Source: an uncultured Candidatus Saccharibacteria bacterium (GTDB taxonomy: Bacteria; Patescibacteriota; Saccharimonadia; Saccharimonadales; Saccharimonadaceae). From it: a DNA stretch of 64,000 nt. The stretch lies in contig CAZBLB010000001.1 in the NCBI GenBank assembly GCA_964492765.1, forward strand, positions 1,736 to 65,735. Reading direction: 5' to 3'. Under the pieces are notes generated by a model. That model saw nothing but the letters and a program-made list of their open reading frames with translations. It searched no databases and was not told the origin of the DNA. The first letter of the stretch is position 1; each line of letters opens with the position of its first letter. The position numbers were made by a program, and so were the translations under genes. Positions 4,137 to 61,125 of the stretch are shown one piece after another.

Positions 4137-5420
4137 CTACGGCAATATCTTCTCCTCAAACCACCTCTTTATCCGCTCAAACAACGTCTCCTCATTCCTC
4201 GGCATCTCCACCCCCTCCTCCGGCTCCGCCACCGCCGGCTCATCACCTTTCTCTGCCGTCTCATAACTCGGGCTAATCTGCTCTGCCGTCACGAGCAACC
4301 TATACCTACTCGTCCCTAGCGGCCAACACGTCACCAGCGTCAATATCGGCTTATCCGTCTCGTAAACCAACTTCGACACCTCCGACGGCTCAATCACCTC
4401 ATTTTTCACCATCTTATACGTATATCTCGTCTCGTTATAATGCACATAAATAATATCTCCCGCCTCAAGCCTCTCCAGTCCCGAAAAAATAAACTTATAC
4501 TGATTGTTCGAATAAATATCCCCCGCCGAATGTCCCGTAATCACAAAGTTTCCTATCTCGCCCGGAAACGCACTCGCCCCAGAAATGCGATAGTGCACCA
4601 CTCCTTGATTCATCGCTTTCATCACCCCATCAAGCCCCACCCCAAACTCAATCGGCACGTCCACGTTTAGCTTCGGAATAATCAACTTATTTTCCGCCGA
4701 CACCTTCGTCAGCGTCACCGTCGGATCAAGCGGAGAAATTTCCTCCGGCAACTGCTCCCCAGGCGACACGTACGCCATAATCGGTGCAAAAATCAACCTG
4801 TTATACTGCAAAAAGAGAATCGTTAGCATCACCGCCACCCCCGCAAAAATCGGCGTCAGCCACCTCCTTCTCGACCACCTCTTTTTTTCCTCTGCTCTTG
4901 CCCTTATTCTCGCCTTAAAACTTCGCTCTTCGCTCGCCTCTTTTTCCGCCGCCCCCGACATCACCGCCCCTTTTATTCCTCCATCATGCACGTCGCTCGG
5001 TTTCGCACTCCCCTCTGCCTGCGCCCGAATATTTTTTACCTGTTCTTTCGCAACATATTCCTTCGCCGCGTTCATATAATATTCACTATAATATTTCTGA
5101 TAATAATCCTGCCAAGCTGTATGATACTTCTTCCATTCCTCATTAGAAACCTGCCGAATTACCGGCGTCGAACTCACCCCCAAAACCCCTCGCGACCTCT
5201 GTAAATCCGTATTTTTGAGCGCGGAGCGATTTTCCGACATTTTTCCCGCCACCCCCTCAGATTTCTGCTCCTCTTTTTCCTGTTTCTTAATAAAATCCGC
5301 CGCTACCTCTACCTCTTTTTTCTCATACGCAAGCAAAACCTTCCGCCGCGCAATCTCGGCGGCGGTCTGTCTCTGACGTTCCTCAGGAGATAACCCACCG
5401 TTTTTAGAATCCATATACAT
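4137..5420 (-). CDS. sortase family protein with long N-terminal region and one TM anchor
   Basis: LIIPKLNVDVPI, NFVITGHSAG (His), TLVTCWPLGTSRYRLLV (TLxTC and Arg). Confidence 0.92.
   Translation of the reverse strand: MYMDSKNGGLSPEERQRQTAAEIARRKVLLAYEKKEVEVAADFIKKQEKEEQKSEGVAGKMSENRSALKNTDLQRSRGVLGVSSTPVIRQVSNEEWKKYHTAWQDYYQKYYSEYYMNAAKEYVAKEQVKNIRAQAEGSAKPSDVHDGGIKGAVMSGAAEKEASEERSFKARIRARAEEKKRWSRRRWLTPIFAGVAVMLTILFLQYNRLIFAPIMAYVSPGEQLPEEISPLDPTVTLTKVSAENKLIIPKLNVDVPIEFGVGLDGVMKAMNQGVVHYRISGASAFPGEIGNFVITGHSAGDIYSNNQYKFIFSGLERLEAGDIIYVHYNETRYTYKMVKNEVIEPSEVSKLVYETDKPILTLVTCWPLGTSRYRLLVTAEQISPSYETAEKGDEPAVAEPEEGVEMPRNEETLFERIKRWFEEKILP
5213..5239 (+). repeat. dispersed motif TTTTGAGCGCGGA-N7-TCCGAMA, copy 1 (in sortase, antisense)
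   Basis: TTTTGAGCGCGGA-GCGATTT-TCCGACA. Confidence 0.9.
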
Positions 5421-5458
5421 TATTATATCATAAAGTCCTGTGTTATAATAAAAATATC

Positions 5459-6001
5459 ATGTTCGACACTACACCTTACGAAAAAGCTATGACCGAAGCT
5501 TTAAACCACTTCAAAGACGAGCTTAAAAAAGTTCGCACCGGTCGCGCCCACCCCGACATGCTCGCCGGCATCAAAGTCGAGGCCTACGGCCAATGGATGC
5601 CCCTTAACCAAGTTGCCAACACCACCGCCCAAGGCGCTTCGCTCCTCCTCGTCACCCCTTACGACCCTTCCACTATCCCCGCCATCTCAAATGCCATCCG
5701 TTCCGACTCCACCCTCGGGCTTAACCCCGCCGACGATGGTCGTGTCGTCCGCGTCCCTATTCCTCCTCTAACCGAAGAACGTCGTAAAGAAATCGTCAAA
5801 ACCACCTCACATTTTGTCGAAGATGCCAAAGTCAAGGTTCGCAACGTCCGCGAAGACGCCCGTAAATCCCTCAAAGCCGCCGAGCTCCCCGAAGACGCCA
5901 AAAAGCGCGCCGAAAAATCCATCGACGACCTCACCAAAAAATTCAACGACGCCATCGACTCCGAGTTCAAACTCAAAGAAAAAGAACTCCTCACGCTCTA
6001 A
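5459..6001 (+). CDS. frr: ribosome recycling factor
   Basis: RTGRAHPDML, LGLNPADDG, IPPLTEERRKEIVK, VRNVREDA. Confidence 0.98.
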   Translation: MFDTTPYEKAMTEALNHFKDELKKVRTGRAHPDMLAGIKVEAYGQWMPLNQVANTTAQGASLLLVTPYDPSTIPAISNAIRSDSTLGLNPADDGRVVRVPIPPLTEERRKEIVKTTSHFVEDAKVKVRNVREDARKSLKAAELPEDAKKRAEKSIDDLTKKFNDAIDSEFKLKEKELLTL

Positions 6002-6022
6002 AACTTGTGTTAAAATAAACAT

Positions 6023-7408
6023 ATGCAAGTTATTTTAGGTATTATTGTTGGTCTTTTATCTTTAATGTTTCTCATCGTCGCGCACGAGTTTGGTCATTTT
6101 CTCATGGCCAGAAAAAACGGCGTCCGCGTCAAAGAGTTTGGCATCGGCTTTCCCCCGCGCGCCGTCGCCTGGATAAAAACCTCTAAAAAACCCAAAATTT
6201 TGAGCGCGGACAAAACTTCCGACATAAAAAAGTCCAAGAGCTCTAAATCCGCCTCCTCCGCCCCTGTTAAATCTTGGTCTCTCCTCAAAAAATCCGACTG
6301 GAAAAATCCTCAAGATTCTTTAATTTTCAGTCTCAACTGGCTCCCGATTGGCGGCTTCTGTGCCATGGATGGCGAATCCGACGCCGATACTAAACCTGGT
6401 ACGTTCGGCGCCGCCTCCTTCTGGAAAAAGACCAAAATCCTCTTCGGTGGCGTCCTCATGAACTGGCTCGTCGCCTTCATTATTTTCACCATCCTTTGTT
6501 GGACTGGCTTGCCCGAAATCCTAAACCACCAGTTTACGGTCAAGTCCGACGAAAAAGTCTCCGTTTCCGCTCCGCTGACAGTCGCCGAAGTATTAGAAGG
6601 CTCGCCTGCCGCCGAAGCTGGGTTCTTGCCAGGAGATGTGTTGCTTGATGTTAGTTATAAAGAAAGCGCCGAGGTCACAGAAACCAAAACCCTGTTGACT
6701 GCCGACGACGTCATAGATTTTAACGCCACCCATGCCGGCCAAACTCTCACCTACACCGTCGTCGAAAGCGACCGCTCTGACGCCACAAAAGATGATGTCA
6801 AGACAGAGAACAACGAAAACGAAACGGCCAGTAAAACCCCCGTCAACGAGTTCGGAGAAAAAACTTTAACCGTCAAACTTAACGACGCAGATGCCGATTA
6901 TCTTTTAGGTATCACTATGGATTCAGGCATAAAAACCATGCGTTATGGCTGGTCTGCCCCTGTCGTTGGCGCTGGGCTGACCGTCCAAACCACCCTCGAG
7001 ACCTATCACGGGCTCTGGCTCATGCTTAAAAATCTCATCACCGGCGCCGCTCGCCAAATTTCCCCCGACGCCGAAACCAGAAAAGAAGGCCGCACCCAAG
7101 TCTCCGAGGCCACCGAAGGCGTCTCTGGCATCGTCGGCATCATCGGCGGATACTTCCCAGGCCTAGTCTCCTCTGGCGCAACATACGTCTTTCTGTTTAT
7201 GGCGGTCATCTCTGTTTCGCTGGCTTGCATGAACGTCCTGCCCATCCCTGCGCTCGATGGCGGCCGGTGGCTTATGATAGCTATTGCTAGGTTGAGACAT
7301 AAAAGGCTCACGAAGGAAAGGGAACAGACCATCGTCGCCAAAGCCTTCATTTTCCTTCTCATTCTCATGGCTATCATCACCGTCGTTGACATCATAAGGT
7401 TGTTTTAA
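6023..7408 (+). CDS. rseP: M50 intramembrane metalloprotease with PDZ domain (RseP)
   Basis: HEFGH zinc motif, LPIGGFC, NVLPIPALDGG. Confidence 0.93.
   Translation: MQVILGIIVGLLSLMFLIVAHEFGHFLMARKNGVRVKEFGIGFPPRAVAWIKTSKKPKILSADKTSDIKKSKSSKSASSAPVKSWSLLKKSDWKNPQDSLIFSLNWLPIGGFCAMDGESDADTKPGTFGAASFWKKTKILFGGVLMNWLVAFIIFTILCWTGLPEILNHQFTVKSDEKVSVSAPLTVAEVLEGSPAAEAGFLPGDVLLDVSYKESAEVTETKTLLTADDVIDFNATHAGQTLTYTVVESDRSDATKDDVKTENNENETASKTPVNEFGEKTLTVKLNDADADYLLGITMDSGIKTMRYGWSAPVVGAGLTVQTTLETYHGLWLMLKNLITGAARQISPDAETRKEGRTQVSEATEGVSGIVGIIGGYFPGLVSSGATYVFLFMAVISVSLACMNVLPIPALDGGRWLMIAIARLRHKRLTKEREQTIVAKAFIFLLILMAIITVVDIIRLF
6198..6224 (+). repeat. dispersed motif copy 2 (in rseP)
   Basis: TTTTGAGCGCGGA-CAAAACT-TCCGACA. 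Confidence 0.9.
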
Positions 7409-8202
7409 TGAATACTCAGTCAGAAAAAGCCGAAGCGCAAAAAAAGCACGCTAAACCCAAAAAAACACAGAATAACACCGTTGTTCGGAGAGTCATAAAC
7501 ATCATCCTTCTGACCGCCTGGGTCGGCGTCGTCCTTTATCTCTGTGGCTATATCGTTTCCTACGGCGTTTACGGGCTTTGTTGGCTGCTTAGAGTCCCTA
7601 TGCCGACCACTCCGGTCTGGATGACTCTTTACAATACCCTTATTTACACACTGGCCGTCATCATTATCGTTTTTATCCCCGTTAAAGTCTTTAAGGTTTG
7701 GAAAACCAATCGAAACGAACTTGGTTTTTCTCGTCTCCTTCCGACTTGGAGCGACCTCGGGCTTGCCCCTATCGGCTTCATTGTCTATCTTTTCGCCGCC
7801 TATCTTTTTCTCCAAGTCGCCGCCCAACTTTTCCCCGGCCTTAATCTCGAAGAGGCTCAAGAACTCGGCTATGACTTTTTGTCCAGTGGTCTCGACCGCG
7901 TCGTCGCTTTCTTCGCCCTCTGTATCGTCTCCCCTATCGCCGAAGAGCTCATCTTCCGCGGCTGGCTCTACGGGAAACTCCGCGCCAAAATCCCCGGAAA
8001 ATTTTCCGTCGTTTTGTCCACCCTTATCGTCTCTATTCTTTTCGGATTCATGCACGGTCAATGGAATGTCGGACTTAACGTCTTCGTCATGTCCCTAGTC
8101 CTCTGCGCCCTCCGAGAAATCACCGGTACTATTCATTCTGGTATTGTTCTCCACATCTTAAAAAACACCGTCGCCTTCGCTCTTCTTTATCTAATTATCT
8201 AA
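7408..8202 (+). CDS. CPBP/CAAX-protease family intramembrane metalloprotease
   Basis: PIAEELIFRG, FGFMHGQ, HILKN; multiple TM segments. Confidence 0.92.
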   Translation: MNTQSEKAEAQKKHAKPKKTQNNTVVRRVINIILLTAWVGVVLYLCGYIVSYGVYGLCWLLRVPMPTTPVWMTLYNTLIYTLAVIIIVFIPVKVFKVWKTNRNELGFSRLLPTWSDLGLAPIGFIVYLFAAYLFLQVAAQLFPGLNLEEAQELGYDFLSSGLDRVVAFFALCIVSPIAEELIFRGWLYGKLRAKIPGKFSVVLSTLIVSILFGFMHGQWNVGLNVFVMSLVLCALREITGTIHSGIVLHILKNTVAFALLYLII

Positions 8203-8221
8203 TATATGTTATAATATATTT

Positions 8222-9724
8222 ATGACAACATTAGCCGATTATAGAAACGAACGCTTGCGCAAACTTGAAGAAATCAAGTCTTTAGGCATAGACCCCTACC
8301 CTCCAAAGTCCCACCGCACCCATAAAATCGCCGACATCACCGAAAAATACAGCGAGCTAGAAGAAAAAACCGTTTCTATCACCGGCCGTCTCGTCGCCAT
8401 CCGCTCCTTCGGCAAGCTTGCCTTCCTTAAACTCCGCGACCTCTCCGGCGAGGTTCAAGTTTTCATGACCGCCGCCGATTTATCCCCCAACGCTTCCACT
8501 CTTTTCAACACCAAACGCCTCCGCCTCCTCGACACCGGAGATTTTGTCGAAGCCACCGGTCGCGTCGGCAAGTCCTCCACCGGCGAGATTTCCGTTTTCT
8601 GCAACGCCGTCCGCCTTCTTGGAAAGTCTCTCCGTCCGCTCCCCGGCCGCGACGGCTTCACCAACAAAGAAGAACGCTATCGTCGTCGCTATGTTGACAT
8701 GAACGTCAATCCCGAAGTTCGCGACCGTCTCGTCCGTCGCAGTCGCTTCTGGCAAGCCACTCGCGAGTTTATGCTTTCGCACGGTTTTGTCGAGGTCAAC
8801 ATCCCCGTCCTCGAGCACACCACCGGTGGTGCCGACGCTAATCCTTTCATTACCCACATGGACGCCCTCGACGAAGATTTTTACCTCCGCATCTCTCATG
8901 AGCTACCCCTAAAGCGCCTTCTTGGTGGTGGCTTCGAAAAAGTCTTTGACATCGGCCCTCGTTTCCGCAACGAAGGCATCGACGACGAGCACCTCCCCGA
9001 GCACATCGCTTTCGAGGCCTACTCCGCCTACGAAGATTACGAAGATGGCATGACCTTCTACGAAGAAATGATTAAATACGTCGCTAAGAAAACCTGGGGC
9101 ACGCTCAAATTCAACGTCTCCGGCTTCGATATCAATCTCGACCAACCTTGGCCTCGCATAAAATACGCTGACCTCCTCAAAGAAAAATACAACGTCGACG
9201 TCTTTAATCCCGACCGCGAACAGCTTAAATCCATCCTTCGCGAAGATTTTACTCGCTCTGAAGATAGCCACGACCCTGCCGCGAAAAAATCCCTTGAGCA
9301 CACTCTAGAGACCGTTTCAACACCCCACCTCATCGACCACGTCTGGAAACTCATCCGCAAAACCTCTGCCGGCCCGTTCTGGCTCGTCGAAGAGCCTCTC
9401 GAGCTTTCGCCTCTCGCCAAAGTCAGTCCCGAAAACCCCAAAGTCACCCAACGTTTTCACCCGATTATCGCCGGTACCGAAATGGGCAACGGTTTCTCTG
9501 AGCTTAACGACCCTCTCGACCAGCTCGCTCGTTTCAAAGAGCAACAAGCCGCTCGCGACGCTGGCGACTCTGAGGCTCAAATGCTCGACATGGACTTTGT
9601 CGAAATGCTCGAATACGGCATGCCTCCCGCCTGTGGCTGGGGCAACAGCGAACGCAACTTCTGGCTTCTCGAAGGCGTCTCCGGCCGCGAGGCCGTCCCC
9701 TTCCCGATAATAAAACAAAGATAG
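8222..9724 (+). CDS. lysS: lysyl-tRNA synthetase (class II)
   Basis: RSFGKLAF, RYRRRYVDM, GGADANPF, YLRISHELPLKRL, FRNEG, GNGFSELNDPLDQ, EYGMPPACG. Confidence 0.99.
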   Translation: MTTLADYRNERLRKLEEIKSLGIDPYPPKSHRTHKIADITEKYSELEEKTVSITGRLVAIRSFGKLAFLKLRDLSGEVQVFMTAADLSPNASTLFNTKRLRLLDTGDFVEATGRVGKSSTGEISVFCNAVRLLGKSLRPLPGRDGFTNKEERYRRRYVDMNVNPEVRDRLVRRSRFWQATREFMLSHGFVEVNIPVLEHTTGGADANPFITHMDALDEDFYLRISHELPLKRLLGGGFEKVFDIGPRFRNEGIDDEHLPEHIAFEAYSAYEDYEDGMTFYEEMIKYVAKKTWGTLKFNVSGFDINLDQPWPRIKYADLLKEKYNVDVFNPDREQLKSILREDFTRSEDSHDPAAKKSLEHTLETVSTPHLIDHVWKLIRKTSAGPFWLVEEPLELSPLAKVSPENPKVTQRFHPIIAGTEMGNGFSELNDPLDQLARFKEQQAARDAGDSEAQMLDMDFVEMLEYGMPPACGWGNSERNFWLLEGVSGREAVPFPIIKQR

Positions 9725-11006: not shown

Positions 11007-11040
<34 letters not shown>

Positions 11041-11077: not shown

Positions 11078-12988
11078 ATGAAAAAGCTCTCGTCTTTCTT
11101 GCTTTTATTAACTTTATTCAGCCTCGTTTTCTCTCATGACTCCGCTCTTGCAAGCGCCAACGATTTTTATTTTTCCTCCGCCACGTTTGACTATTATCTA
11201 GAAAAAACCGCCGACAGCTCCTCGTCCATGTCCGTCAAAGAAACTCTAACTGCCGTCTTTCCAGGCTTTGACCAAAACCACGGCATCGAACGTTGTATCC
11301 CGACCAAATATCGCGAGGTCAAGTCTCTCGACGAAAGCTCTGTCTCCGTCCTCCGTAATGGCGTCGCCGAGCCTTTCACTTCTTCCCTTAACGAAAAGGG
11401 CGAAATCTGCCTCCGCATCGGCAGCGCAAGCACCTATGTCCACGAAACCCAGGTTTACGAAATCTCCTACGCCCTAGAAAATGTCATCCTCCTTCCCGAC
11501 GACTCCACAAACCAAGAACTCTACTGGGATACTAACGGCACCGGCTGGGAACAAACGTTCGAACAAATCACCGCAAACGTCCACCTCCCACCCTCTTTAT
11601 CGTCCGCATACCTCGATAGCCCTTCTTGTTATGTCGGCTATTACGGCACCAGCGGTATCAGCGCCACTTCTCGCTGCAAAATCTCTAGCACCAATACCTC
11701 AGACCCGTCAGAGAATACCGAGAATGGCTCAGTTTCAGAAAAGCTCATCACCTTTACCGCCACAAACGTCCGCCCCGGAGAAACTTTGACTTTCGATTTA
11801 GAGTTCTCCCCCGACACTTTCTATGTTAAAACTCCTGACTATACCGTACGAAACATTTTTTACACCCTTTTTGGAATAGTCGGCGTCTTGCCAGTTATCT
11901 TTGGTGTCGTTCAAGTTAAAAAATCTTTTAACGAGGTCAAAGAAAAGCGCGCCATCGCCAAAGAAAAAATCGTTCCTGTCCAATACACCCCGCCTAAAGA
12001 CCTCACCGTCGGCGAGTCCGCCGAACTTTCATTAAACGTCATAGAGCCTTCCGAGGTCGCCACCCTGCTCGAGCTTGCCGTCCGCCACCACATTTCTCTC
12101 GAGCGCGGAGAAAAGAAAACTTTTGGCGGCTATAAGTGGAAAATCCATGTCCTAGACATAGAAAAAATCTCCAGGGCCGAAGAGGACATCCTTAAAATCC
12201 TTAACGGCGGAGATTCCGTCAAAAACGGCGACGTTATAGAAGTCAAACGTCGCTCCGCCACTTCTCGCATGATTCATCTCGGAAACGATTACCGCGAAGA
12301 AAACAAAACTACGCTCGCCTTGAAAGCCATGTTCGAGCCAACCAAAGACAGAAACGGACTTAAAAGCGTCAAAACCTCTCTAAGTCTTATTATAGTGGCT
12401 TTCTTCATTATGATAGCTTTGTTTGTCGCCAGCGATTTTATCCCCGAACTTTTCCGCTCCGTCGACGGTATCGAAACCGTCTTTAATGTCATCCCGTTCG
12501 TCTTTTTCTTTAACATCTTCGGTCTCATCATTATTTTAAGCATCGAAGGCTCACTTAAACAATATCGCGACCGCACTATTTTAGGTCTTCAAACCTCCAA
12601 ATATCTTGACGGACTAAAAACTTATATGGCCATGAGCGAAAAAGAACGGCTTGCTTTCCTGCAAAGTGTTTCCGGAGCCGACACATCTAGCGCCGGTATC
12701 GTTAAACTTTACGAAAAACTCCTCCCCTACGCCGTCATCTTCCGCCTCGAAGATTCTTGGCTCAAAGAGCTTAATCACTATTACGAAACCGAGTCCGTCG
12801 ACAGGCCAAACTGGTTGGTCGGCGCGGCCATCATCAACAGCTCCGATTTTCGCACCTTTAAGACCTATACCGCTTCCGCCATCAGTCAAAGTACCTCGGC
12901 TTCGTCCAGTTCCTCCGGCAGTTCCGGTGGTGGAGGTGGCGGATTCTCCGGCGGCGGTGGAGGTGGCGGCGGAGGTGGCGGCTGGTAA
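11078..12988 (+). CDS. DUF2207 family membrane protein
   Basis: Signal peptide, HGIERCIP, ELYWDTNGTGW, two TM regions, YEKLLPYAVIF, terminal SSGGGGGGFSGGGGGGGGGGGW. Confidence 0.9.
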   Translation: MKKLSSFLLLLTLFSLVFSHDSALASANDFYFSSATFDYYLEKTADSSSSMSVKETLTAVFPGFDQNHGIERCIPTKYREVKSLDESSVSVLRNGVAEPFTSSLNEKGEICLRIGSASTYVHETQVYEISYALENVILLPDDSTNQELYWDTNGTGWEQTFEQITANVHLPPSLSSAYLDSPSCYVGYYGTSGISATSRCKISSTNTSDPSENTENGSVSEKLITFTATNVRPGETLTFDLEFSPDTFYVKTPDYTVRNIFYTLFGIVGVLPVIFGVVQVKKSFNEVKEKRAIAKEKIVPVQYTPPKDLTVGESAELSLNVIEPSEVATLLELAVRHHISLERGEKKTFGGYKWKIHVLDIEKISRAEEDILKILNGGDSVKNGDVIEVKRRSATSRMIHLGNDYREENKTTLALKAMFEPTKDRNGLKSVKTSLSLIIVAFFIMIALFVASDFIPELFRSVDGIETVFNVIPFVFFFNIFGLIIILSIEGSLKQYRDRTILGLQTSKYLDGLKTYMAMSEKERLAFLQSVSGADTSSAGIVKLYEKLLPYAVIFRLEDSWLKELNHYYETESVDRPNWLVGAAIINSSDFRTFKTYTASAISQSTSASSSSSGSSGGGGGGFSGGGGGGGGGGGW

Positions 12989-14287: not shown

Positions 14288-14288
14288 A

Positions 14289-18859: not shown

Positions 18860-20212
18860 ATGAACATCCTTATTCTTGGTTATGGCCTCGAAGGCAAGTC
18901 TGTCGAAAACTACTTTAAGTCCGGCCCCTCTCTCTACGAACACACCAAAATCGACGTCCTAGACAAATTTGCCCTAGACGACCTCAAAGAAAAAGATTTT
19001 ACCGGCTACGACCTCATTTTTCGCACTCCTTCCGTCCGCCCCGACGCCATCCCCGCCCCCCAAGAAAAAATCACCAGCCTCACCAAATTCTTTTTTGACC
19101 GTTGTCCGGCGCCGATTATTGGCGTCACCGGCACCAAAGGCAAGGGAACTACCTGCACCCTCATTCGCGACTTACTCAGAAGCTTCCTCCCGCTCACTTC
19201 AAAAGTCTTTCTCGTCGGCAACATCGGCACTCCCGCTCTCGACGTCCTCCCCGAACTTACTAAAAACGACGTCGTGGTTTACGAGCTTTCCTCTTTTCAA
19301 CTCTGGGACCTAGAGAAATCCCCCCAGGTTTCTGTCGCGCTCCGCATCGAGCCCGACCACCTCGACGTCCACAAAGATTTTTCCGAATACCTCACCGCTA
19401 AAAAGAACATTACTCTCCACCAAACCCCCGACGATTTTCTCGTTTATTTCCAAAACAACAAAAACACCAAAGCTCTCGCCGACGTCTCTCCCGCCCAAAA
19501 ACTCTCCTATCCGTTAAAAGAAAAATCCCCTCTCGAGACCGAACTTTTAAACTCGCTCGCTATCCCTGGCGACCACAACAAAGAAAACGCCGAGGCTGCC
19601 CTTCTCGCCTGCTTTGTATATGCCAAAAAGCTCAAAATCACCCCTGAAAATACTCGTTTTGAGGACTTTTTAGACGCTAATTTTTCGGAGTTTCGCTCCG
19701 CGCTCAAAAATTTTCAACCCCTCCCCCACCACATCGAATTTGTCCGCGAACTTAACAGTATAAAATACTACGACGACTCCTTTTCGACCGTCTATCCTGC
19801 TCTCGAAGTTGCCATCAAATCCTTCCAAAACACCCCGCTCGTCCTCATCGCTGGCGGTAAGGATAAAGGTTTTCCTCTCGACCCCGTTAAAAGAATTATT
19901 TTTGACAACCCCAACCTCATCAAAGCCGTCCTTATCGGCGAAACCGCCCCTGCTCTCGCCGAAAACGAAGACCCCAAAAAGTTCTTCCACGCCGGCACTG
20001 ATTTTGACCTAGCCGTCCAAAAAGCCCGCGAATTTGCCGAAGACTATCTTTCTCGCGCCGAAGCAAATTCCGACACTTGTCTCGTCGACGCCAAAAAGCC
20101 CATTGTCCCTCCCGTCGTTCTGCTTTCGCCCTGCGCCTCCTCTTTTGATATGTTCGAAAGCTACAAACAGCGTGGCGACCTTTTCAAAGAACTCGTAAAC
20201 TCACTAAACTAA
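18860..20212 (+). CDS. murD: UDP-MurNAc-L-Ala:D-Glu ligase
   Basis: GVTGTKGKGTT, VGNIG, ELSSFQL, DHLDVH, YYDDSFST, LIAGGKDKG, LLSPCASSFDMF. Confidence 0.96.
   Translation: MNILILGYGLEGKSVENYFKSGPSLYEHTKIDVLDKFALDDLKEKDFTGYDLIFRTPSVRPDAIPAPQEKITSLTKFFFDRCPAPIIGVTGTKGKGTTCTLIRDLLRSFLPLTSKVFLVGNIGTPALDVLPELTKNDVVVYELSSFQLWDLEKSPQVSVALRIEPDHLDVHKDFSEYLTAKKNITLHQTPDDFLVYFQNNKNTKALADVSPAQKLSYPLKEKSPLETELLNSLAIPGDHNKENAEAALLACFVYAKKLKITPENTRFEDFLDANFSEFRSALKNFQPLPHHIEFVRELNSIKYYDDSFSTVYPALEVAIKSFQNTPLVLIAGGKDKGFPLDPVKRIIFDNPNLIKAVLIGETAPALAENEDPKKFFHAGTDFDLAVQKAREFAEDYLSRAEANSDTCLVDAKKPIVPPVVLLSPCASSFDMFESYKQRGDLFKELVNSLN
19683..19709 (-). repeat. dispersed motif copy 3 (in murD)
   Basis: Reverse complement TTTTGAGCGCGGA-GCGAAAC-TCCGAAA. 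Confidence 0.9.
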
Positions 20213-32162: not shown

Positions 32163-34646
32163 ATGCTCATCTCTCTAAACGAACTCAAAAAACTCGTCGA
32201 CATCAAAATCAGCGATGACGAGCTCGTCCGCCTCATCGGCTCCCGTCTCGTCGAAGTCGAAGGTGTTTCTGATTGGTCGAAAAAATACAAAAACATCTTC
32301 ATCGTCAAAGTCCTCTCGGCCGACCTCATCGAAGGTACTCATCTTCATCTCTGCAAAATCGACGCCGGAAAAACTTTGAACGCCTCCATCGACCCCGACC
32401 ACGACGGTTTTATCCAGGTCGTTTGTGGCGCGCCCAACGTCCGCAAAGACATGTTCGCCATCTGGATTGCCCCCGGCGCTATCGTCCCCGAAACTTACGC
32501 CACTCCTGAGCCGTTCGAGATTTCCGCTCGCAAACTTCGCGGCTTCATGAGCTTTGGCATGCTCGCCGCCGCCGATGAACTCGCCCTCGGCTCCGACCAC
32601 AACGGCATCCTCGAACTCAACCCAAACGATCCCAAAATCGCCCCAGGCGCTTCTTTCGCCGAAGTTTTTGAGCTTAACGACAAAATCCTCGAAATCGAGA
32701 ACAAATCCCTCACTCACCGCCCTGACTGTTTCGGGCTTATTGGGTTCGCCCGCGAAGTCGCCGGCATCCTCGGCCAACCTTTTGTTATGCCATCAGGAAA
32801 AGACCTCATTCACCATCTAAACATCCAAGAGCCTAAACTTTCCATCAAAATCTCCGACTATTCTCTCTGTCCTCACTACGAAGCGCTCCTTTTTGACCTC
32901 TCCTCGCTCCCTCAAAAATCTCCATATCTCACTTCAAGCGACCTCTTCTTAATAAAATCCGGCATGCGTCCCGTCTCTCCTATCGTCGACGCTACCAACC
33001 TCATCATGCTAAAAACCGGCCAGCCTCTCCATGCGTTCGACTACGACAAGTTTCTCTCCGTAGGCGGCACTAACGAAGCAAACATCTCCGTCCGCCTCGC
33101 CCGAAATGAAGAAAAGCTCACCCTCCTAGACGGAAAAACCATCTCTCTAAACGAAACCGACATCGTCATCTGCTCCAATGACACCCCCGTCGCACTCGCC
33201 GGCGCCATGGGTGGTCAATCCACCGAAATCGACGCCTCGACTAAAACCGTCCTCGTCGAAATCGCCAGCTTCTCCCTCTACAACCTCAGAAAAACCCAGA
33301 TGTCTCACGGCCTCTTCTCCGAAGCTATCACCCGCTTCACCAAAGGCCGTCCCGCGACCGACCTCCTCTCCGCAACCGCCGACACCATTCAATTCTTCAC
33401 CAAAAACTTCGGCGCCAAGTTTCTCGGCCTAAAAACCGTCTCCGACCCTAGCCTTAAAAACGACCGTGACAAGTTTATTCTCCCGACCATCACCATTTCC
33501 GCCCAAGAAATCAACTCTCTTCTTGGCTCAAATTATTCACCCGAACTTATCAAATCCACCCTTGAAAACGTCGGTTTTTCCGTTATTTTGAGCGCGGATG
33601 AAACTTCCGAAACTTTCACCGTCACCGCCCCCGTCTGGCGCGCCGACATCCACATCAAAGAAGACCTCATCGAAGAGGTCGGACGTCTCCTCGGCTACGA
33701 CAATTTACCTCTGAGCTACCCGCTCCGCCCGTTCGTCTGCGCCTCTGTCGAGCCACTCTTTACCCTCAAGTCCAAAATCCGCAACCTCCTCTCCGACCGC
33801 CTCGGTCTAAACGAAGTTTTGACATATTCTTTTGTCTCAAAGAGGCTCCAGTCATCAGCTCTCGAAGACGTCGCCGACAGCTACAAAATCATCAACTCCC
33901 TCTCGCCCGAGCTCGAATGTTTCCGCCAAACCATCGTTCCTTCGCTTCTCGACAAAATCCGCGAGAACGAAAAAGCCGGGCATAAAGACTTTACGCTCTA
34001 CGAGCTTAACCAAGTCACCAAAAAATCCCTCGGCCTAACCGACGAGCACGTCCCCGTCATGGAGACCCACCTCGGACTTGCTGGACAAGGCAGTTTCTAC
34101 GACGTTAAGGCCACAGTCACAGAACTTCTCTCTCGGCTCGGCTACGCTTTCTCTTTTACGCCCCTCGAAACCTCTACCTTCCTTGAACCTTCCCGCTCCC
34201 TTACTATTTTAGGAGAAAACGGCGTCGTTCTCGGCTCGTTTGGCGAAATAAAACTTTCCGTCCTCAAGTCTTTCAAGCTTTCCGCCCCCGTTTTCGCACT
34301 AGAACTTAATCTCTCCGCTCTCGTCGCTCTCCCCGCTTCAATCAAAAAGGGCATTAAACTCCCCAAGTTTCCTTTTGTTTCTCGCGACCTCACTGTCCGC
34401 GTTCCAGTTTCTCTCGCCTTCGCCGACGTCGAGAACATCCTCAAGACCTCTCTCGACTCCGAAAACAACCTTCTCTATCGCCTCACCCCAACGTCTATCT
34501 ATACTAAACCCGGCCTCGAGACCAAAAACCTCTCCTTCCACCTTTCACTCACAAACACCGATAAAACTTTCACCTCCGCCGAAATTTCTGCTATAATAGA
34601 AAAAATCACAAACAATCTCTCGGCGCTCGGTGCGGAAGTAGTCTAG
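32163..34646 (+). CDS. pheT: phenylalanyl-tRNA synthetase beta subunit
   Basis: VVCGAPN, LRGFMSFGML, THRPDC, GQPLHAFD, WRADIHIKEDLIEEVGR, RDLT. Confidence 0.98.
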   Translation: MLISLNELKKLVDIKISDDELVRLIGSRLVEVEGVSDWSKKYKNIFIVKVLSADLIEGTHLHLCKIDAGKTLNASIDPDHDGFIQVVCGAPNVRKDMFAIWIAPGAIVPETYATPEPFEISARKLRGFMSFGMLAAADELALGSDHNGILELNPNDPKIAPGASFAEVFELNDKILEIENKSLTHRPDCFGLIGFAREVAGILGQPFVMPSGKDLIHHLNIQEPKLSIKISDYSLCPHYEALLFDLSSLPQKSPYLTSSDLFLIKSGMRPVSPIVDATNLIMLKTGQPLHAFDYDKFLSVGGTNEANISVRLARNEEKLTLLDGKTISLNETDIVICSNDTPVALAGAMGGQSTEIDASTKTVLVEIASFSLYNLRKTQMSHGLFSEAITRFTKGRPATDLLSATADTIQFFTKNFGAKFLGLKTVSDPSLKNDRDKFILPTITISAQEINSLLGSNYSPELIKSTLENVGFSVILSADETSETFTVTAPVWRADIHIKEDLIEEVGRLLGYDNLPLSYPLRPFVCASVEPLFTLKSKIRNLLSDRLGLNEVLTYSFVSKRLQSSALEDVADSYKIINSLSPELECFRQTIVPSLLDKIRENEKAGHKDFTLYELNQVTKKSLGLTDEHVPVMETHLGLAGQGSFYDVKATVTELLSRLGYAFSFTPLETSTFLEPSRSLTILGENGVVLGSFGEIKLSVLKSFKLSAPVFALELNLSALVALPASIKKGIKLPKFPFVSRDLTVRVPVSLAFADVENILKTSLDSENNLLYRLTPTSIYTKPGLETKNLSFHLSLTNTDKTFTSAEISAIIEKITNNLSALGAEVV
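33586..33612 (+). repeat. dispersed motif copy 4 (in pheT)
   Basis: TTTTGAGCGCGGA-TGAAACT-TCCGAAA. Confidence 0.9.
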
Positions 34647-46865: not shown

Positions 46866-48086
46866 ATGAAATATCTAGCCGAACTTGGAAGGCAGACTGA
46901 GCTTTCTCTCGCTGAACTCGAGAGTCTTTTTTCTCATGTAACACCGCTAAAAACAGGGGTGCTTTCCTCCAAATCCACACATTCTTTCGGAGAATCGCTC
47001 CGCGCTCAAAATTCTGCCAAACCAAGCGTCGCTCTCGCCACTTTCGAGTCCGAAACTGTCCCCGACCTCACCCGTCTCGGCGGCACGCTCAAAATCGGCG
47101 TCGAGCTCACTCGCTCCGTCCTCGACGAGCTTCGTGCTCTACCCGAAGGCAAAATCACCCTCGGTGTCTCCGATTACCGAAAGTCCGCCTCAAAAGCCTC
47201 TGCCCGCGCCGAAGCCCTAAAGCTCAAAAAAATCCTCGCCCGCCACGGCCGTAGCGTTCGGGTCTTAGAAAACAAATCCGCCGTCCTGTCAACCGCCACT
47301 TCCCACCACAATCAACTTGCAGAAAAGAAAAATCATGTCGAAATTATGCTCACCGACGTCGGGGCTTTCCGCCTTCTCGCCGTCCAAAACATCACCCTCT
47401 ATGCCAAGCGCGACCAAGCTCGCCCCGCCCGCGACGCCAAAGTCGGCATGCTTCCTCCAAAACTCGCCCAAATCCTCCTCAATCTCTGCGGCCCTCTCCC
47501 CGAAAACGCCCGCGTCCTCGACCCCTTCTGTGGCACAGGTGTCGTCCTCCAAGAAGCCTTGCTCATGGGCTACCGTGTCATGGGCTCCGACCTCTCTGAA
47601 CGCATGGTGGACTATTCGAGGAAAAACCTCGCTTGGCTCTCCGAAAACCTCTCGACTTTCCAAAAATCCACCACCGAAAAAAGCACACCTCTCCCCGACT
47701 CTCCTGTCCTTCTCGCTGGCGACGCCACCTCTCTTTCTTGGCCTGCCGCCATTGACGCCGTCGCTACTGAAGTCTTCCTCGGCTCTCCTCTGTCCGCCCC
47801 TCCCGCCGAAATAAAACTTAAAACCGAAAAAGACACCTGTAAAACCATCATTCTCGACACTCTCAAAAACCTCGCCCCCCAACTCAAAAAAGACACTCCT
47901 CTCGTCCTCGCCGTCCCCGCTTGGCTCCGCCCTAACGGTTCCTACTCTAGATTAGAACTCCTTGACGAAATCAAATCTCTGGGTTATAATGTAAAAAGTT
48001 TCAAAAACTTGGGCGCTTCCGCCCTTCTCTATCACCGAGAGGGTCAAGTCGTCGCCCGAGATATAATAGTATTAAGGAAATCCTAA
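46866..48086 (+). CDS. Trm11/TRMT-like SAM-dependent RNA methyltransferase
   Basis: RDAKVGMLPPKLAQIL, VLDPFCGTGVVLQEA, GSDLSERM. Confidence 0.85.
   Translation: MKYLAELGRQTELSLAELESLFSHVTPLKTGVLSSKSTHSFGESLRAQNSAKPSVALATFESETVPDLTRLGGTLKIGVELTRSVLDELRALPEGKITLGVSDYRKSASKASARAEALKLKKILARHGRSVRVLENKSAVLSTATSHHNQLAEKKNHVEIMLTDVGAFRLLAVQNITLYAKRDQARPARDAKVGMLPPKLAQILLNLCGPLPENARVLDPFCGTGVVLQEALLMGYRVMGSDLSERMVDYSRKNLAWLSENLSTFQKSTTEKSTPLPDSPVLLAGDATSLSWPAAIDAVATEVFLGSPLSAPPAEIKLKTEKDTCKTIILDTLKNLAPQLKKDTPLVLAVPAWLRPNGSYSRLELLDEIKSLGYNVKSFKNLGASALLYHREGQVVARDIIVLRKS
46985..47011 (-). repeat. dispersed motif copy 5 (in Trm11-like gene)
   Basis: Reverse complement TTTTGAGCGCGGA-GCGATTC-TCCGAAA. 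Confidence 0.9.
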
Positions 48087-56546: not shown

Positions 56547-56617
56547 CGCTTTCTTCCTTGAAATTTTCTCAAAAGTGTGCTAAAATAGTATAAAGTATCT
56601 ATCACTAAAGGAGCATT

Positions 56618-56818: not shown

Positions 56819-56819
56819 A

Positions 56820-57380: not shown

Positions 57381-57903
57381 AGTTCCGGAAGCCCTTCCGA
57401 AACAATACAAACCTTCCCCGATTAGCAAAATCAAGGAGACCGTCTTCCGCAAAAAGCCGGTCATCCAAGAGATTGTCCGCGAACCGACCGCTGGCGGCAT
57501 TGTTTTTCGACTCACTCCCGACAGTCGCGATATTGAGATTCTTCTTATTCAAGATTCCAAAAATCGCTGGACTATTCCTAAGGGTCACATCGAGCCAGGC
57601 GAGTCCGCCAAACAAACCGCCATCCGCGAAATCGGCGAAGAGGCTGGGCTTTTCCATATCAACGTTCTCTGTTGGCTCGGCAAAATCCATTTCAAATACC
57701 GCCGTCTCGACAAACTTGTCCTCATGACCACCCAAATCTACCTTGTCCACTCCCTTGACCCCCGCGAAACACCCACCAAAGAAAAATGGATGAACGGCAT
57801 CAAATGGTTCAAATTTTCCGACGCCCTCGACGCTATCGAATACGAAGACATAGAAAAACTCATGCTCATAGCAAAGAAAAAAATCCGCTCAGGAGAATTT
57901 TAA
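57286..57903 (+). CDS. NUDIX hydrolase (start codon uncertain)
   Basis: Nudix box [23 protein letters not shown]; the nearest in-frame ATG (57286) lies inside nusB. Confidence 0.85.
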
Positions 57904-57909
57904 ACACAC

Positions 57910-58611: not shown

Positions 58612-58713
58612 TCTCTCACCCTTCTCGTTCGTCTTCGCGCGTCTCCTCACCTCTTTACTTTTTCCCCAAAATCTACTATAATAAACCCACTATTAATTTT
58701 AAGGAGAAATCCA

Positions 58714-59067
58714 ATGCTCGCGATTCGCATGCAGCGTAATGGCCGTACTCACCTCCCGGTGTATCGGATAGTCGTCCAAGAATCACAGCGCCATCCCCTC
58801 TCTGGGCGCGTTGTGGCCGAGGTCGGCTCATACAACCCAGAAACCAAAAAACTCACCCTCATAAAAGAAAAAGTCGAGTTTTATCTTAAAAACGGCGCCC
58901 AGCCTTCTTCTCGCGTCGCTCACGTCCTCGAGAAAAACGGTGTCAAACTTCCTGAGTGGTACAAAAAGCCCCCAGTAAAGTCCGTTAAGGCTAAACACGC
59001 CAACAAACTCCGCAGAAACCAGCCCAAAGAGGCTCCTGCGGACGCCGAAGCTCCCGCCGAGGCTTAG
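58714..59067 (+). CDS. rpsP: 30S ribosomal protein S16
   Basis: MLAIRMQRNG, YRIVV, EVGSYNP, GAQPS. Confidence 0.97.
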   Translation: MLAIRMQRNGRTHLPVYRIVVQESQRHPLSGRVVAEVGSYNPETKKLTLIKEKVEFYLKNGAQPSSRVAHVLEKNGVKLPEWYKKPPVKSVKAKHANKLRRNQPKEAPADAEAPAEA

Positions 59068-59108
59068 CTAACCCCTACAATTCACAAATCGTAGGTTCTA
59101 TGCACAAC

Positions 59109-59137
59109 AAAAATCGCCCCTAAAGGGCGATTTTTTA
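59109..59137. terminator. bidirectional terminator, AAAATCGCCC family
   Basis: AAAAATCGCCC-CTAAA-GGGCGATTTTT between convergent rpsP and khpA. Confidence 0.85.
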
Positions 59138-59144
59138 GTTCCGA

Positions 59145-59519
59145 TTATATATCGAGGTCGTCCAAGTCTTTCAGCTCAGCCCGAGTTTTGTCCGCTACGC
59201 TCTCGTCGGCTTCCTCAGTCTCAGCCTTTTCACTCGCTTCATCCGCCTCTGTCGTTCCACCAGTCTCCGCCCCATCCGTATTCACAATTTTAAGGTTATA
59301 GCGCGCATCGTTCTTCGTTCCAAGCGCCCTAAGAAGCGTACGAATAGACTGCGCCGTTACCCCACGCTTGCCAATCACGCGCCCCACGTCTTCTGGATCA
59401 ACCGACAGAGAAAGAAGCACGCCTTTTTCATCAATTTTTCTTTCAACAGAAACTTTATCTGGATTATTAACGAGAGTTTTCACGATATACTCAACAAATT
59501 GCTGGTCGATGGTTGACAT
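59145..59519 (-). CDS. khpA: KH-domain RNA-binding protein KhpA
   Basis: VDPEDVGRVIGKRGVTAQSIRTLL (GxxG KH loop). Confidence 0.92.
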   Translation of the reverse strand: MSTIDQQFVEYIVKTLVNNPDKVSVERKIDEKGVLLSLSVDPEDVGRVIGKRGVTAQSIRTLLRALGTKNDARYNLKIVNTDGAETGGTTEADEASEKAETEEADESVADKTRAELKDLDDLDI

Positions 59520-59694
59520 TTTTTGCTCCATGTTATTATTTTACCCCTATTATATCACAAACCTTCGCGCTCGCGCCAAAAAAATCGCCCCCTGTTGGGG
59601 GGCGTGGCCAGAAACGGCGCGGAAAAATCGGTAGAAAATCACGGAGCGAACAGCTAGGCAAGAGCCGAAACGAAACGGGCGTAAAAGTCGCGTT

Positions 59695-60138
59695 TTACGA
59701 CTGCTTCGCCTCGCGTTCTTTGCGCTTCGCCTCCACCTTCTTATACATCTCCTCAATCTCATAAAGAGACATCGGCATCGGCACGTCCTTCTTCACCTCT
59801 CTCGCGACGACTCTTCTGTAATAGTCTCTTCGGCTAGCCGACAGATGAAGATTGTTTAAGATTGCCGACTTGTCGCGAGCAGAAGCAGAAAGCGGGATAC
59901 CTTCGGCGTGCGCCACGTCCACGAGTCGGTCAAACCTTCGCGACACTTTTCCGTTCGCGTCGCTTAGTCGCCTCTCAAGACGGTCCCACTCTCCGTGGTA
60001 TCTTTCATTAAAAAGCTCAATCACGCGAGGATGCGGAGTCCGCTCCAGAAGCTCCTTCTTCATAAAATAAATGCGATTAAACGCACCAATATCTTTCAGG
60101 AGCCCCAAAATTTCCAGATAATAAGTTGCGATAGACAC
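59695..60138 (-). CDS. hypothetical basic protein (147 aa)
   Basis: GTG start, GGGGGTG RBS, upstream TGCTATAAT; Arg/Lys-rich; no motif recognised. Confidence 0.75.
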   Translation of the reverse strand: MSIATYYLEILGLLKDIGAFNRIYFMKKELLERTPHPRVIELFNERYHGEWDRLERRLSDANGKVSRRFDRLVDVAHAEGIPLSASARDKSAILNNLHLSASRRDYYRRVVAREVKKDVPMPMSLYEIEEMYKKVEAKRKEREAKQS

Positions 60139-60315
60139 CTATATCACCCCCTAAAAGGTCTATCCTTTTATTATAGCACAAAACTCAAGAAAAATCAACC
60201 TCAAGCCTTCACCACCCCTAATCAAGCCCCATCCCCGCACAACACTAATAAACCCCACAAACCACCGCGCCCCACACGCTCCGTGCCCAAACCAACCCAA
60301 AAAATCCCCACCACC

Positions 60316-60415
60316 AAAAAACCACCGGTAGCCAAACCCGTGGATTTTTGAACATATAAGCTCTCAACTTTTATGTGTAAAGCCGACTCGCAGTTAGCTT
60401 TGTTCAAAAAGAACT
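60316..60415 (-). ncRNA. putative structured sRNA or riboswitch-like leader (~100 nt)
   Basis: Follows a consensus promoter; TTTTTGAACA/TGTTCAAAAA stem enclosing two hairpins, then a GC hairpin and T6. Confidence 0.45.
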
Positions 60416-60421
60416 ATACCC

Positions 60422-60450
60422 AGTATACTCAAATTTCTTATGCTTGTCAA
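60422..60450 (-). promoter_or_regulatory. consensus sigma70 promoter
   Basis: TTGACA-17 bp-TATACT on the minus strand. Confidence 0.85.
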
Positions 60451-60466
60451 GATTTTTTTGAAAAAT

Positions 60467-60491
60467 AAAATCGCCCCCTGTCTAGGGGGCG
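60467..60491 (-). terminator. terminator, AAAATCGCCCC family
   Basis: Minus strand CGCCCCC-TAGACA-GGGGGCG-ATTTTATTTTT downstream of 60552-60995. Confidence 0.7.
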
Positions 60492-60551
60492 TAGGTTTTT
60501 TGGGTTCTAACTAGCCGACGTCTCGGATAATTAATGTTCTGAACGGACGTC

Positions 60552-60995
60552 TCAGCCAATCGCTTTCGTCACAATCTTCCACGCCGTAAGTCTCGGAAAA
60601 ATCGTCGCAATCAGCGCCAGCTCGCGGTCGAAAAGCACAGCCCCCTCCACGGTATTGTTCGGCTTACGCGCAGGTATCTCCGGGGTCGTATAGCAGGCCA
60701 GCTCGCATTTCGGCGCACCCTCGATGTCGGGTCTCAGTGGCCTCGCCACCACGTCGTGTCCACGACTCGGCGCATACACCGCAATCTTGTCCACCCAGAC
60801 TTCCGCGCCCAGGCTAATTCCACTGCCGGCCGCAAAGCCAAACACCATCACGTCCGCCATCTGCGGAATATTCAGTCTCTTGGCCGCGTCGAGCGACCAA
60901 ATCCCTCCCTTGATTAAATAAATCTGGTGGCCGAACTTGCTAAACCTCTCGCGCGCAAAGGCGTACTCTCTAGGCTCCGTTGTCAGGATATGCAT
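60552..60995 (-). CDS. degenerate nucleoside phosphorylase / MTA-SAH nucleosidase-fold protein
   Basis: Motif order matches PNP_UDP_1 (HILTTEPRE; LIKGGIW; VMVFGFAAG; LFDRELALI; KIVT); GGAGGTG RBS before ATG 60995. Confidence 0.65.
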   Translation of the reverse strand: MHILTTEPREYAFARERFSKFGHQIYLIKGGIWSLDAAKRLNIPQMADVMVFGFAAGSGISLGAEVWVDKIAVYAPSRGHDVVARPLRPDIEGAPKCELACYTTPEIPARKPNNTVEGAVLFDRELALIATIFPRLTAWKIVTKAIG

Positions 60996-61051
60996 AAAAA
61001 CACCTCCGTTCCTGCATGCTCCCAAAAGTTCTAATGTGCTACGGATTTCCA

Positions 61052-61080
61052 ACTATAAACCGTTTCCGCCCTTTTGTCAA
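61052..61080 (-). promoter_or_regulatory. sigma70 promoter
   Basis: TTGACA-17 bp-TATAGT on the minus strand. Confidence 0.8.
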
Positions 61081-61098
61081 CTTCGCCCCATGCCCGAT

Positions 61099-61125
61099 TT
61101 TTGAGCGCGGATGAAATCTCCGACA
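61099..61125 (+). repeat. dispersed motif copy 6 (intergenic)
   Basis: TTTTGAGCGCGGA-TGAAATC-TCCGACA. Confidence 0.9.

Follow-up and report, generated by a model that had tools for sequence, protein, structure and literature searches.

A dispersed DNA motif, TTTTGAGCGCGGA-N7-TCCGAMA, recurs in a 64-kb stretch of the genome of an uncultured Candidatus Saccharibacteria bacterium (contig CAZBLB010000001.1 of assembly GCA_964492765.1; hereafter, the window) and in related genomes. It is maintained at the level of DNA, it is confined to a narrow clade, and it is embedded in flanking sequence whose base composition alternates with the pitch of the double helix. Based on these properties, we tentatively propose that the motif serves to dock a chromosomal protein that bends or wraps DNA, or a topoisomerase complex, with gyrase-like geometry. 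Protein binding, DNA wrapping, the identity of the protein (gyrase or other), and its physiological role are all matters that we infer from the sequence patterns described below.

The window contains exactly six matches to the pattern, at 5213(+), 6198(+), 19683(-), 33586(+), 46985(-), and 61099(+), which are the positions and strands listed in an earlier note on this DNA. A relaxed scan of the window that tolerated one to three mismatches added no further copy. The earlier claim that the copies exceed chance also stands: exact matches average 0.00 in the dinucleotide-shuffled window, and a third-order Markov simulation of the window expects 0 copies at zero or one mismatch. Near-misses occur at chance level (two sites with four mismatches against 1.25 expected, and 11 with five against 9.0, under the Markov model); the window thus holds six perfect copies without a halo of partial matches. 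The 13-mer TCCGCGCTCAAAA is its commonest non-simple 13-mer. The motif is not an assembly artefact, since the copies at 5213 and 6198 are unchanged in four independent public assemblies of the same species whose overlaps are 99.98-100% identical.

Together, the window's genome and seven related metagenome-assembled genomes (MAGs) supply 67 copies, or about 52 independent sites after clustering of their flanks. These copies occur on both strands, in every one of the five stop-free reading frames, and in intergenic DNA, and selection of the motif as DNA, not as protein, is strongly supported for that reason. In long open reading frames, frame +1 reads (V/I/L)LSA(D/E)xTSE at about 19 sites, frame +2 reads SFERGxNFRK at about seven, frame -1 reads SExxSALK at about 12, frame -2 reads FGxLLRAQ at about 13, and frame -0 reads FRKFxPRSK at a few. 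Roughly 78-80% of the copies are intragenic and 9-15 are intergenic, with sense and antisense placements nearly equal (about 26:25). The inference, made first from three different frame and strand combinations in the window, that protein selection fails to explain the copies is therefore borne out by five frames and the intergenic copies; the three combinations themselves hold, conserved amino acids do not account for the sites, and the other frames encode unrelated peptides. Mismatch classes in the relatives are also skewed toward perfection, with 61 perfect copies, eight with one mismatch, four with two, and one with three, a ratio inflated by the choice of blocks that hold a perfect copy. 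Neutral decay would predict similar counts per class, unlike this 61:8:4:1 series.

A sequence logo of the 67 copies extends the motif to a 28-base core, TTTTGAGCGCGGA-SS-AAA-C-T-TCCGAAA, in which at least 20 central positions are invariant or nearly so. The seven bases first described as a variable core are not free: A occupies positions 16-17 in 97% of copies and position 15 in 75%, C predominates at position 18, and T predominates at position 19, giving the preference SS-AAA-C-T. A also fills the two positions 3' of TCCGA in 85-96% of copies. In the window's own species, the N7 is less strict (GCGATTT, GCGATTC), and half of the copies carry TCCGACA. The core can be written as a left arm, TTTT[GAGCG]CGGA, and a right arm, TCCGAAAA, that form an inverted repeat with a five-base interruption on one side; its strictly self-complementary part is limited to the CGGA/TCCG pair of 4 bp. 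That pair, reported earlier, is present, but it does not support a stable hairpin: single-strand folding of the six window copies is no better than that of shuffled sequence (z -1.4 to +0.4), and mismatch variants in the relatives' blocks show no compensatory changes.

The sequence on either side of the core is helically phased. Flanks were averaged over 43 to 46 independent sites and compared with 2000 sets of random sites from the same loci; the extents given here describe the average and not single copies. Across 46 sites, AT content peaks upstream at -31, -20, -9, and +1.5 and downstream at about 28.5, 39, 50, 61, and 72, with GC-rich troughs between the peaks. The best-fitting AT period is 11.0 bp upstream and 10.75 bp downstream, and its spectral power exceeds the control mean 12- to 24-fold and lies above the maximum of the 2000 control sets. 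The signal spans about -60 to about +105 from the motif start before falling to background; it is strongest from -48 to +93, and the midpoint of its envelope lies near +22. Individual sites conform to the phase in 41 of 46 cases upstream and 39 of 46 downstream, and five scored sites in the window have downstream phase projections of 0.12-0.34 against a control standard deviation of 0.10. The phasing belongs to the motif itself: copies with one or two mismatches share it, while near-misses with four to seven mismatches (n = 1854) show no periodicity. It is not a by-product of amphipathic helices, because the phase is identical in all reading-frame classes and at intergenic sites.

The two arms are mirror-related about position 15.0 (r = 0.85, with equivalent solutions every 5.4 bp), and they are half a helical turn out of phase with one another. 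Arms in register would be expected of a uniform planar bend, or of a nucleosome-like wrap with a dyad, unlike the arrangement seen here; the half-turn offset means that the arms curve to opposite faces, as if each lay on its own protein lobe.

Many sites carry a second feature, a companion word, which is CC[CT]CTGT (usually with WAA after it) or the reverse complement of that sequence. The word has a background frequency of 0.2 per kb in these genomes, and about 30 of the 52 independent sites have it between -50 and +90. In either orientation, its preferred starts are +40 to +43 (nine sites) and -17 to -12 (five sites), against an expectation of about 0.04 per position window. These positions lie about 29 bp to either side of position 16, the center of the CGGA/TCCG inverted repeat. 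Helical periodicity is no weaker in the 25 sites that have no companion. In the window, CCYCTGT has a strand bias of 14:2, which is due to the extreme GC skew. Some intergenic copies share a longer extension (…TCCGAAAnTnTATTGAGGTGAAACAGGGG; TATTGAGGTGAAACAGGGG in L059, L043, and L075). A promoter -10 element, a Shine-Dalgarno sequence, and an XerD or integron half-site were each considered for the companion and dropped by eye; real promoters and ribosome-binding sites in this DNA look canonical (TGCTATAAT, AAGGAGG).

DNA gyrase provides the comparison from which our reading takes its geometry. The Escherichia coli gyrase motif is symmetric and 130 bp long, with a center that spans -16 to +19, flanked by arms (-63 to -17 and +20 to +66) that repeat every 10.75 bp, a periodicity ascribed to wrapping on the GyrA C-terminal domains (PMC6379681). 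Its consensus has AT patches at about ±19, 29.5, 38.5, 49.5, and 61 (supplement of PMC6379681). When the arms of our motif were compared with this consensus at all offsets and in both orientations, the best match was centered on motif position 20-21 (r = 0.53-0.57, the center being picked among 5.4-bp aliases), which is one of the mirror solutions and lies near the envelope midpoint at about +22. With this center, the AT peaks fall at about ±19, 29.6, 40.4, and 51.2, and the core lines up roughly as a T-tract, about 11 GC-rich bases, AAA, the center, and AAAA. The two kinds of site are alike in total extent (about 130-165 bp), in having a center and two arms, in a period of 10.75-11 bp, and apparently also in arms that are mirror-related and shifted by half a turn. 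They are unlike in that the center of gyrase sites (the E. coli Topo-Seq motif and phage Mu's strong gyrase site, SGS) is degenerate and indirectly read, whereas ours has 20 or more invariant bases and is asymmetric, is joined by a discrete companion word about 29 bp away on either side, and occurs in a single clade. We regard the likeness as a real architectural resemblance and not as proof of membership.

Each copy would then be the specific center of a protein-DNA complex of about 140-165 bp. A clade-specific factor would read the asymmetric 28-bp core base by base, while about 60-80 bp per side would lie on protein surfaces, the arms bending to opposite faces because their AT and GC periodicities are half a helical turn out of phase. 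The likeliest role would be that of a fixed, high-affinity anchor or entry point where a complex of gyrase type, or one of nucleoid architecture, organizes the topology of a very small, gene-dense chromosome. The sites would sit inside genes because intergenic DNA is almost nil, preferably in tolerant protein segments, and they would override codon choice there. Among the three functions suggested in the earlier note, a binding site for a chromosome-associated protein fares best, given phased flanks that are locked to the motif, with binding itself still putative. A more specific version of this idea is speculative, and we consider it doubtful: about 20-70 invariant 28-bp "address" words inside essential genes, each with about 150 bp of gyrase-like arms, would position a DNA-wrapping complex at set intervals and act as hard-wired anchors of topological domains in a minimal genome, replaced nearby when lost and coevolving with a clade-specific reader.

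Several observations weigh against a docking site of this kind. Gyrase reads DNA weakly and degenerately, and to our knowledge it does not need an invariant word of at least 20 bases; such a core needs another specific factor, or a property beyond those known. The phase match to gyrase has about 10-35% odds of being an accident, the central region correlates at only r = 0.25, and the center was chosen among solutions that recur every 5.4 bp. Because the relatives' copies were retrieved by the exact pattern, their conservation at the fixed positions is partly a retrieval effect. A density that ranges between species from about 1/12 kb to 1/50 kb is odd for an essential organizer, and no hypothesis, ours included, explains the origin of perfect copies without visible intermediates. 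Finally, the successive gaps between the copies at 6198, 19683, 33586, 46985, and 61099 are 13,485, 13,903, 13,399, and 14,114 bp (p about 1e-4, post hoc), but the adjoining 10 kb on the left lack the predicted copy, and copies in the relatives are irregularly spaced. We treat the 13.4-14.1 kb spacing as unexplained or coincidental.

The motif is confined to a narrow clade, a small group of ruminant-gut Saccharibacteria. A search for the 18 fixed bases in one genome per species of the Genome Taxonomy Database (GTDB) returned 93 DNA blocks, of which 58, with 61 copies, belong to seven MAGs of Candidatus Saccharibacteria; these MAGs stem from the intestines of goat, sheep, and roe deer and from two other studies. 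The relatives thus hold the further copies that the earlier note had anticipated. The window is conspecific with GCA_017404215.1 and, at 66-83% nucleotide identity to the seven MAGs, represents a further species. Exact copies occur about once per 11-12 kb in the window's species and once per 12-50 kb in the relatives; dialect shifts may hide copies. The remaining blocks are single matches in unrelated phyla at about the chance rate, with the exception of Acidobacteria loci. In these Acidobacteria MAG loci (L020, L024, L038, L048, L071, L073, L077, L079, and L080), the 18 bases lie within a longer conserved stretch, gcacgccttccttgcttcaca…, that appears to be a conserved gene or RNA of no relation to the Saccharibacteria motif; two of these loci, L024 and L073, had zero Rfam matches.

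Other samples are consistent with this narrow range. A scan of viral contigs gave no match, and no copy with up to two mismatches was found in 1.04 Mb of DNA from Saccharibacteria and other members of the candidate phyla radiation (CPR), which was retrieved through SecA (42-65% identity) regardless of the motif. These SecA-retrieved loci come only from distant relatives (at most 65% identity) and form a clean negative control in which dialects were not found; most of the repeated 13-mers that a de novo search recovered from the 80 loci were chance pairs. Not one copy occurs in the ribosomal-protein operon (15 kb) to the left of the window. Public goat, sheep, and bovine gut metagenomes carry the locus, and contig depth rises 3- to 6-fold exactly over the motif (window 6192-6222). 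The contigs that produce this spike (runs X5-X8) are unrelated in sequence on both sides of the motif and so derive from other copies or other species; coming from otherwise unmatched contigs, the spike indicates many more copies in related organisms. A literature search on the motif sequence and on Saccharibacteria uptake sequences found no mention of either in the library searched.

Unbiased comparisons based on synteny with the window show how sites persist and move. Flank clustering resolves about 52-55 separate clusters, of which about 10-12 are common to several species. In pheT, an identical copy, N7 included, stands at the orthologous place in SRP278969_co2_233 (accession prefix CAZQMP) within flanks that are only about 70% identical, and the pheT of that MAG has a second copy 129 nt off. 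In serS, a site common to two relatives aligns without indels to window sequence that resembles the motif at random level, and several amino acids differ. The murD copy of the window, which overlies an existing conserved helix, is missing at the orthologous place in RGIG4343, where a one-mismatch copy lies 190 nt upstream in the same gene. Three species have a copy in the 5' region of the methyltransferase gene, with three placements and two orientations among them; the window copy (copy 5) lies in a segment of about 75 nt that is missing from two relatives, whose own copies are elsewhere and in the other orientation. Shifts such as those in murD and the methyltransferase gene are expected if a region needs a site somewhere. 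Overall, about five of the roughly 12 relative copies that can be mapped to the window fall within 200 nt of a window copy, against about 0.5 expected. From this excess and the synteny comparisons, sites are perfect or absent, long kept in some places and replaced nearby in others.

A DNA uptake signal is the main alternative, though a rather doubtful one. The clade's type IV pilus and Com proteins would favor motif-bearing DNA, and biased uptake with recombination would spread perfect copies, as in the Pasteurellaceae and Neisseriaceae. Saccharibacteria do encode ComEC, DprA, ComFC, and type IV pili, and natural transformation that depends on comEC occurs in one species (PMC10633639); competence is documented only in other Saccharibacteria than those described here. 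Like the uptake signal sequences (USS) and DNA uptake sequences (DUS) of those families, the motif is intragenic in several frames and at tolerant residues (PMC2817400), lacks orientation bias relative to genes or strand skew (PMC1626085), and has a lineage-specific, dialect-like consensus. Its perfect copies outnumber singly mismatched ones (61 vs 8; six vs zero in the window), as in genomes with Hin-type USS (PMC1626085), and its GC-rich core with AT tracts one helical turn apart recalls the USS core and its two AT segments (PMC2817400, PMC1626085). The lack of the motif from all viral contigs fits this explanation as well.

The uptake explanation falters on density and flank architecture. 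Known uptake sequences occur about once per kb, 10-50 times more densely than the motif (PMC1626085), and our 28-bp core is two to three times longer than any of them (9-12 bp). The motif's flanks are two-sided, mirror-related, and about 150 bp in extent, whereas the AT tracts of USS are two in number and on one side only (PMC1626085), and USS have nothing that corresponds to the companion word at ±29 bp. Under a gradual molecular drive, partial matches should form a gradient (PMC1939737), which the window lacks, as it does competence genes. Moreover, no uptake specificity is known outside two proteobacterial families (PMC1626085), and the host of the motif is a Patescibacterium. The suggestion of a DNA uptake sequence in the earlier note thus agrees with several hallmarks of USS and is weakened by these features.

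An operator, bound by a global transcription regulator or nucleoid-associated repressor near gene starts, is unlikely. It would account for the 28 of 52 sites that lie within 250 nt of a gene start (20.8 expected, p = 0.03), for the nine within 300 nt of a divergent junction (5.1 expected, p = 0.06), for the 13 intragenic sites (of 33) that occupy the opening fifth of their gene, and for the position of window copies 1, 5, and 6 at divergent junctions; DNA-bending flanks are also frequent at regulator sites. Convergent junctions show zero enrichment among the same 52 sites. The enrichment near gene starts and divergent junctions is weak, and it may equally stem from tolerant N-terminal segments and not from function. 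Many sites lie deep in genes, including those in murD and pheT and copies 700-2800 nt from the start, the host genes are unrelated housekeeping genes, and placement and orientation relative to the start are inconsistent, with sites shifting within genes between species. At about 45 bits, the information in the motif is far above the need of a regulon of about 70 sites.

More improbable still is mobile or recombining DNA, whether a miniature repeat (of REP/REPIN, RPE, or MITE kind), a transposon footprint, or a site-specific recombinase's target, copied by insertion or short-patch gene conversion. Repetitive extragenic palindromic (REP) sequences are GC-rich, imperfect palindromes of enterobacteria that form hairpins, bind gyrase and IHF, and are mobilized by RAYT transposases, and Rickettsia palindromic elements (RPEs) are insertions of 100-150 bp that are homologous over their whole length. 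The motif resembles REPs, and the bacterial interspersed mosaic elements (BIMEs) that they build, as an abundant, short, dispersed repeat with a plausible part in nucleoid topology; like RPEs and in-frame miniature inverted-repeat transposable elements (MITEs), it lives in coding genes without destroying them. BIME-2 elements are themselves gyrase targets (PMC6379681). The perfect-or-nil copies of the window, which lack intermediates, would suit such an origin, as would new copies at non-orthologous places in the same gene, some of them in indel-rich segments, and two arms around a 7-nt spacer that superficially resemble the core site of a tyrosine recombinase.

In contrast to these elements, different copies share only 28 bp, and their flanks have periodic composition but no common sequence. 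At least some sites arose without insertion: only substitutions separate the serS site from its motif-less orthologue, and the murD copy lies over a helix that already existed. About four-fifths of the sites are intragenic, unlike REPs, and a stable hairpin is lacking; a REP/RPE-like remnant, as once suggested, does not fit. Orthologous copies are conserved while their flanks have diverged, and a spacer that varies between copies would block recombination among them. No joints between copies occur among the public contigs listed, transposase and integrase genes are absent from the window and copies from the viral contigs, and no RAYT gene was seen in the part of each genome available. The last alternative, a peptide-level signal (a short linear motif such as LSAExTSE, the commonest reading) or a structured or antisense RNA, is effectively refuted by the frame distribution, with four further frames giving unrelated peptides and 9-15 copies in intergenic DNA, and equally finds no footing in Rfam and tRNA scans of the window and nine related loci (empty at every copy), in folding at the shuffled level, or in mismatch variants free of compensatory changes.

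Short words selected genome-wide for chromosome handling, often within genes, form a further class for comparison. These include the FtsK-orienting polar sequences (KOPS), Chi, parS, matS, and the Noc- and SlmA-binding sites (NBS and SBS). Our motif differs from them in being non-polar with respect to skew, in its non-palindromic core, and in being two to three times longer. A KOPS- or Chi-type polarity is ruled out by an orientation of 27:39 relative to local GC skew, which is not significant despite very strong skew (0.1-0.4 absolute), and a parS, NBS, or matS type of site (a 12-16 bp palindrome clustered in one chromosomal domain) is at odds with a core that has only 4 self-complementary bp. 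The skew itself is pronounced: it ranges from -0.20 to -0.38 in every 4-kb bin of the window, with C far exceeding G on the + strand, and it is independent of gene strand, remaining near -0.37 over the minus-strand genes at 44-52 kb; the relatives' blocks (L001-L092) have absolute values of 0.1-0.4.

No described family of sites accommodates all features of the motif. New here, relative to the earlier note, are the SS-AAA-C-T core, the companion word at about ±29 bp, and the phased arms of about 150 bp. Patescibacteria are almost wholly uncultured, and we know of nothing on how their chromosomes are folded, supercoiled, or exchanged. The element offers a concrete handle on these questions, as a sharply defined word kept perfect against codon preference within flanks patterned like DNA that is wrapped. 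Should it prove to be an architectural or gyrase anchor, chromosome topology would be programmable by specific intragenic sites, and the motif could serve as bait for its reader protein; should it prove to be an uptake signal, no earlier one would be known beyond two proteobacterial families, and it could ease genetic manipulation of such organisms. Under either reading, strong selection on DNA can shape protein sequences in these genomes.

The six window copies fall in tolerant protein segments (N-terminal tails, loops, and a stretch outside the main Pfam M50 match) or in intergenic DNA. Copy 1 (TTTTGAGCGCGGAGCGATTTTCCGACA, 5213-5239, +) is antisense in a sortase-domain gene (4137-5420, -), where it encodes residues 61-70 (MSENRSALKN) of the N-terminal tail that precedes the sortase domain; its phased flanks span 5153-5318 (+), from -60 to +105, and a companion, CCTCTGT, stands at the canonical -17 (5196-5202, +). 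Copy 2 (6198-6224, +; phased span 6138-6303, +) is sense in an M50/RseP gene (6023-7408, +) and encodes residues 59-68 (ILSADKTSDI), between residue ~50 and the start of the main Pfam M50 match at residue 98; the companion CCCCTGT(TAAA) lies 37 nt past it (6261-6267, +), a non-canonical distance. Copy 3 (19683-19709, -; phased span 19604-19769, -) is antisense in a Mur ligase (MurD-like) gene (18860-20212, +) and encodes residues 275-284 (FSEFRSALKN), with no insertion relative to the orthologue.

Copy 4 (33586-33612, +; phased span 33526-33691, +) is sense in pheT (32163-34646, +), at residues 475-484 within the B5 domain. Copy 5 (46985-47011, -; phased span 46906-47071, -) is antisense, in the second antisense frame, in a UPF0020 methyltransferase gene (46866-48086, +), where residues 40-49 read the motif as FGESLRAQ; the companion CCCCTGT(TTTT) is 26 nt past it (46953-46959, -), likewise at a non-canonical distance. 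At the motif, rseP and pheT thus read ILSAD/ExTSD/E in the sense direction, and the sortase and murD genes read SExxSALK in antisense. Copy 6 (61099-61125, +; phased span 61039-61204, +) is intergenic, between a divergent open reading frame (ORF; 60552-60995, -) and the start of rpoB near 61329(+), about 205 nt upstream of that gene, which extends beyond the window end. The genes named earlier for the five copies in coding sequence agree with Pfam, and the placement of the sixth is here corrected to this intergenic position upstream of rpoB. The remainder of the window encodes core housekeeping functions, including ribosomal proteins, seven aminoacyl-tRNA synthetase genes, SecA, UvrA, DnaE, and RNase III; Pfam matches among the window genes include no competence, transposase, or integrase genes.

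One copy in a relative lies beside an rRNA operon. In L037, from MAG SRP278969_co2_233, the copy at 1107-1131 is 61 nt past the 3' end of a 5S rRNA gene (1192-1300, minus), downstream of an rRNA operon; the ends of rRNA operons are a known gyrase hotspot in E. coli (PMC6379681).

An independent dispersed word of another kind was found in another CPR contig (L106; SecA 50% identical). This contig has its own 16-bp perfect palindrome, TCCGCCAGCTGGCGGA, in three exact copies and one variant within 13 kb (5512-5527, 7439-7454, 8479-8494, and 12145-12160), three of the four inside ORFs, secA included; a 27-nt inverted pair also occurs at 2943 and 6205. The palindrome hints that DNA words of this sort, lineage-specific and intragenic, could be widespread among CPR genomes.

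Finally, the window has minor features apart from the motif. The ORFs at 61607-62260(-), 62531-62914(-), and 63020-63967(-), one of which is not on record as a gene, are antisense artefacts of skewed composition in rpoB. A tRNA-Leu gene (3931-4017) is flanked by C-rich tandem repeats of 22 and 36 nt (3827-3876 and 4047-4134), and an intergenic (AT)14 microsatellite (11010-11037) precedes a DUF2207 gene. A family of terminator-like hairpins, AAAATCGCCCC-loop-GGGGCG(ATTTT), occurs at 59579-59610, at 60465-60495, and in five other places; the 11-mer AAAATCGCCCC has seven occurrences in the window, and hairpins of like form are present in related loci.

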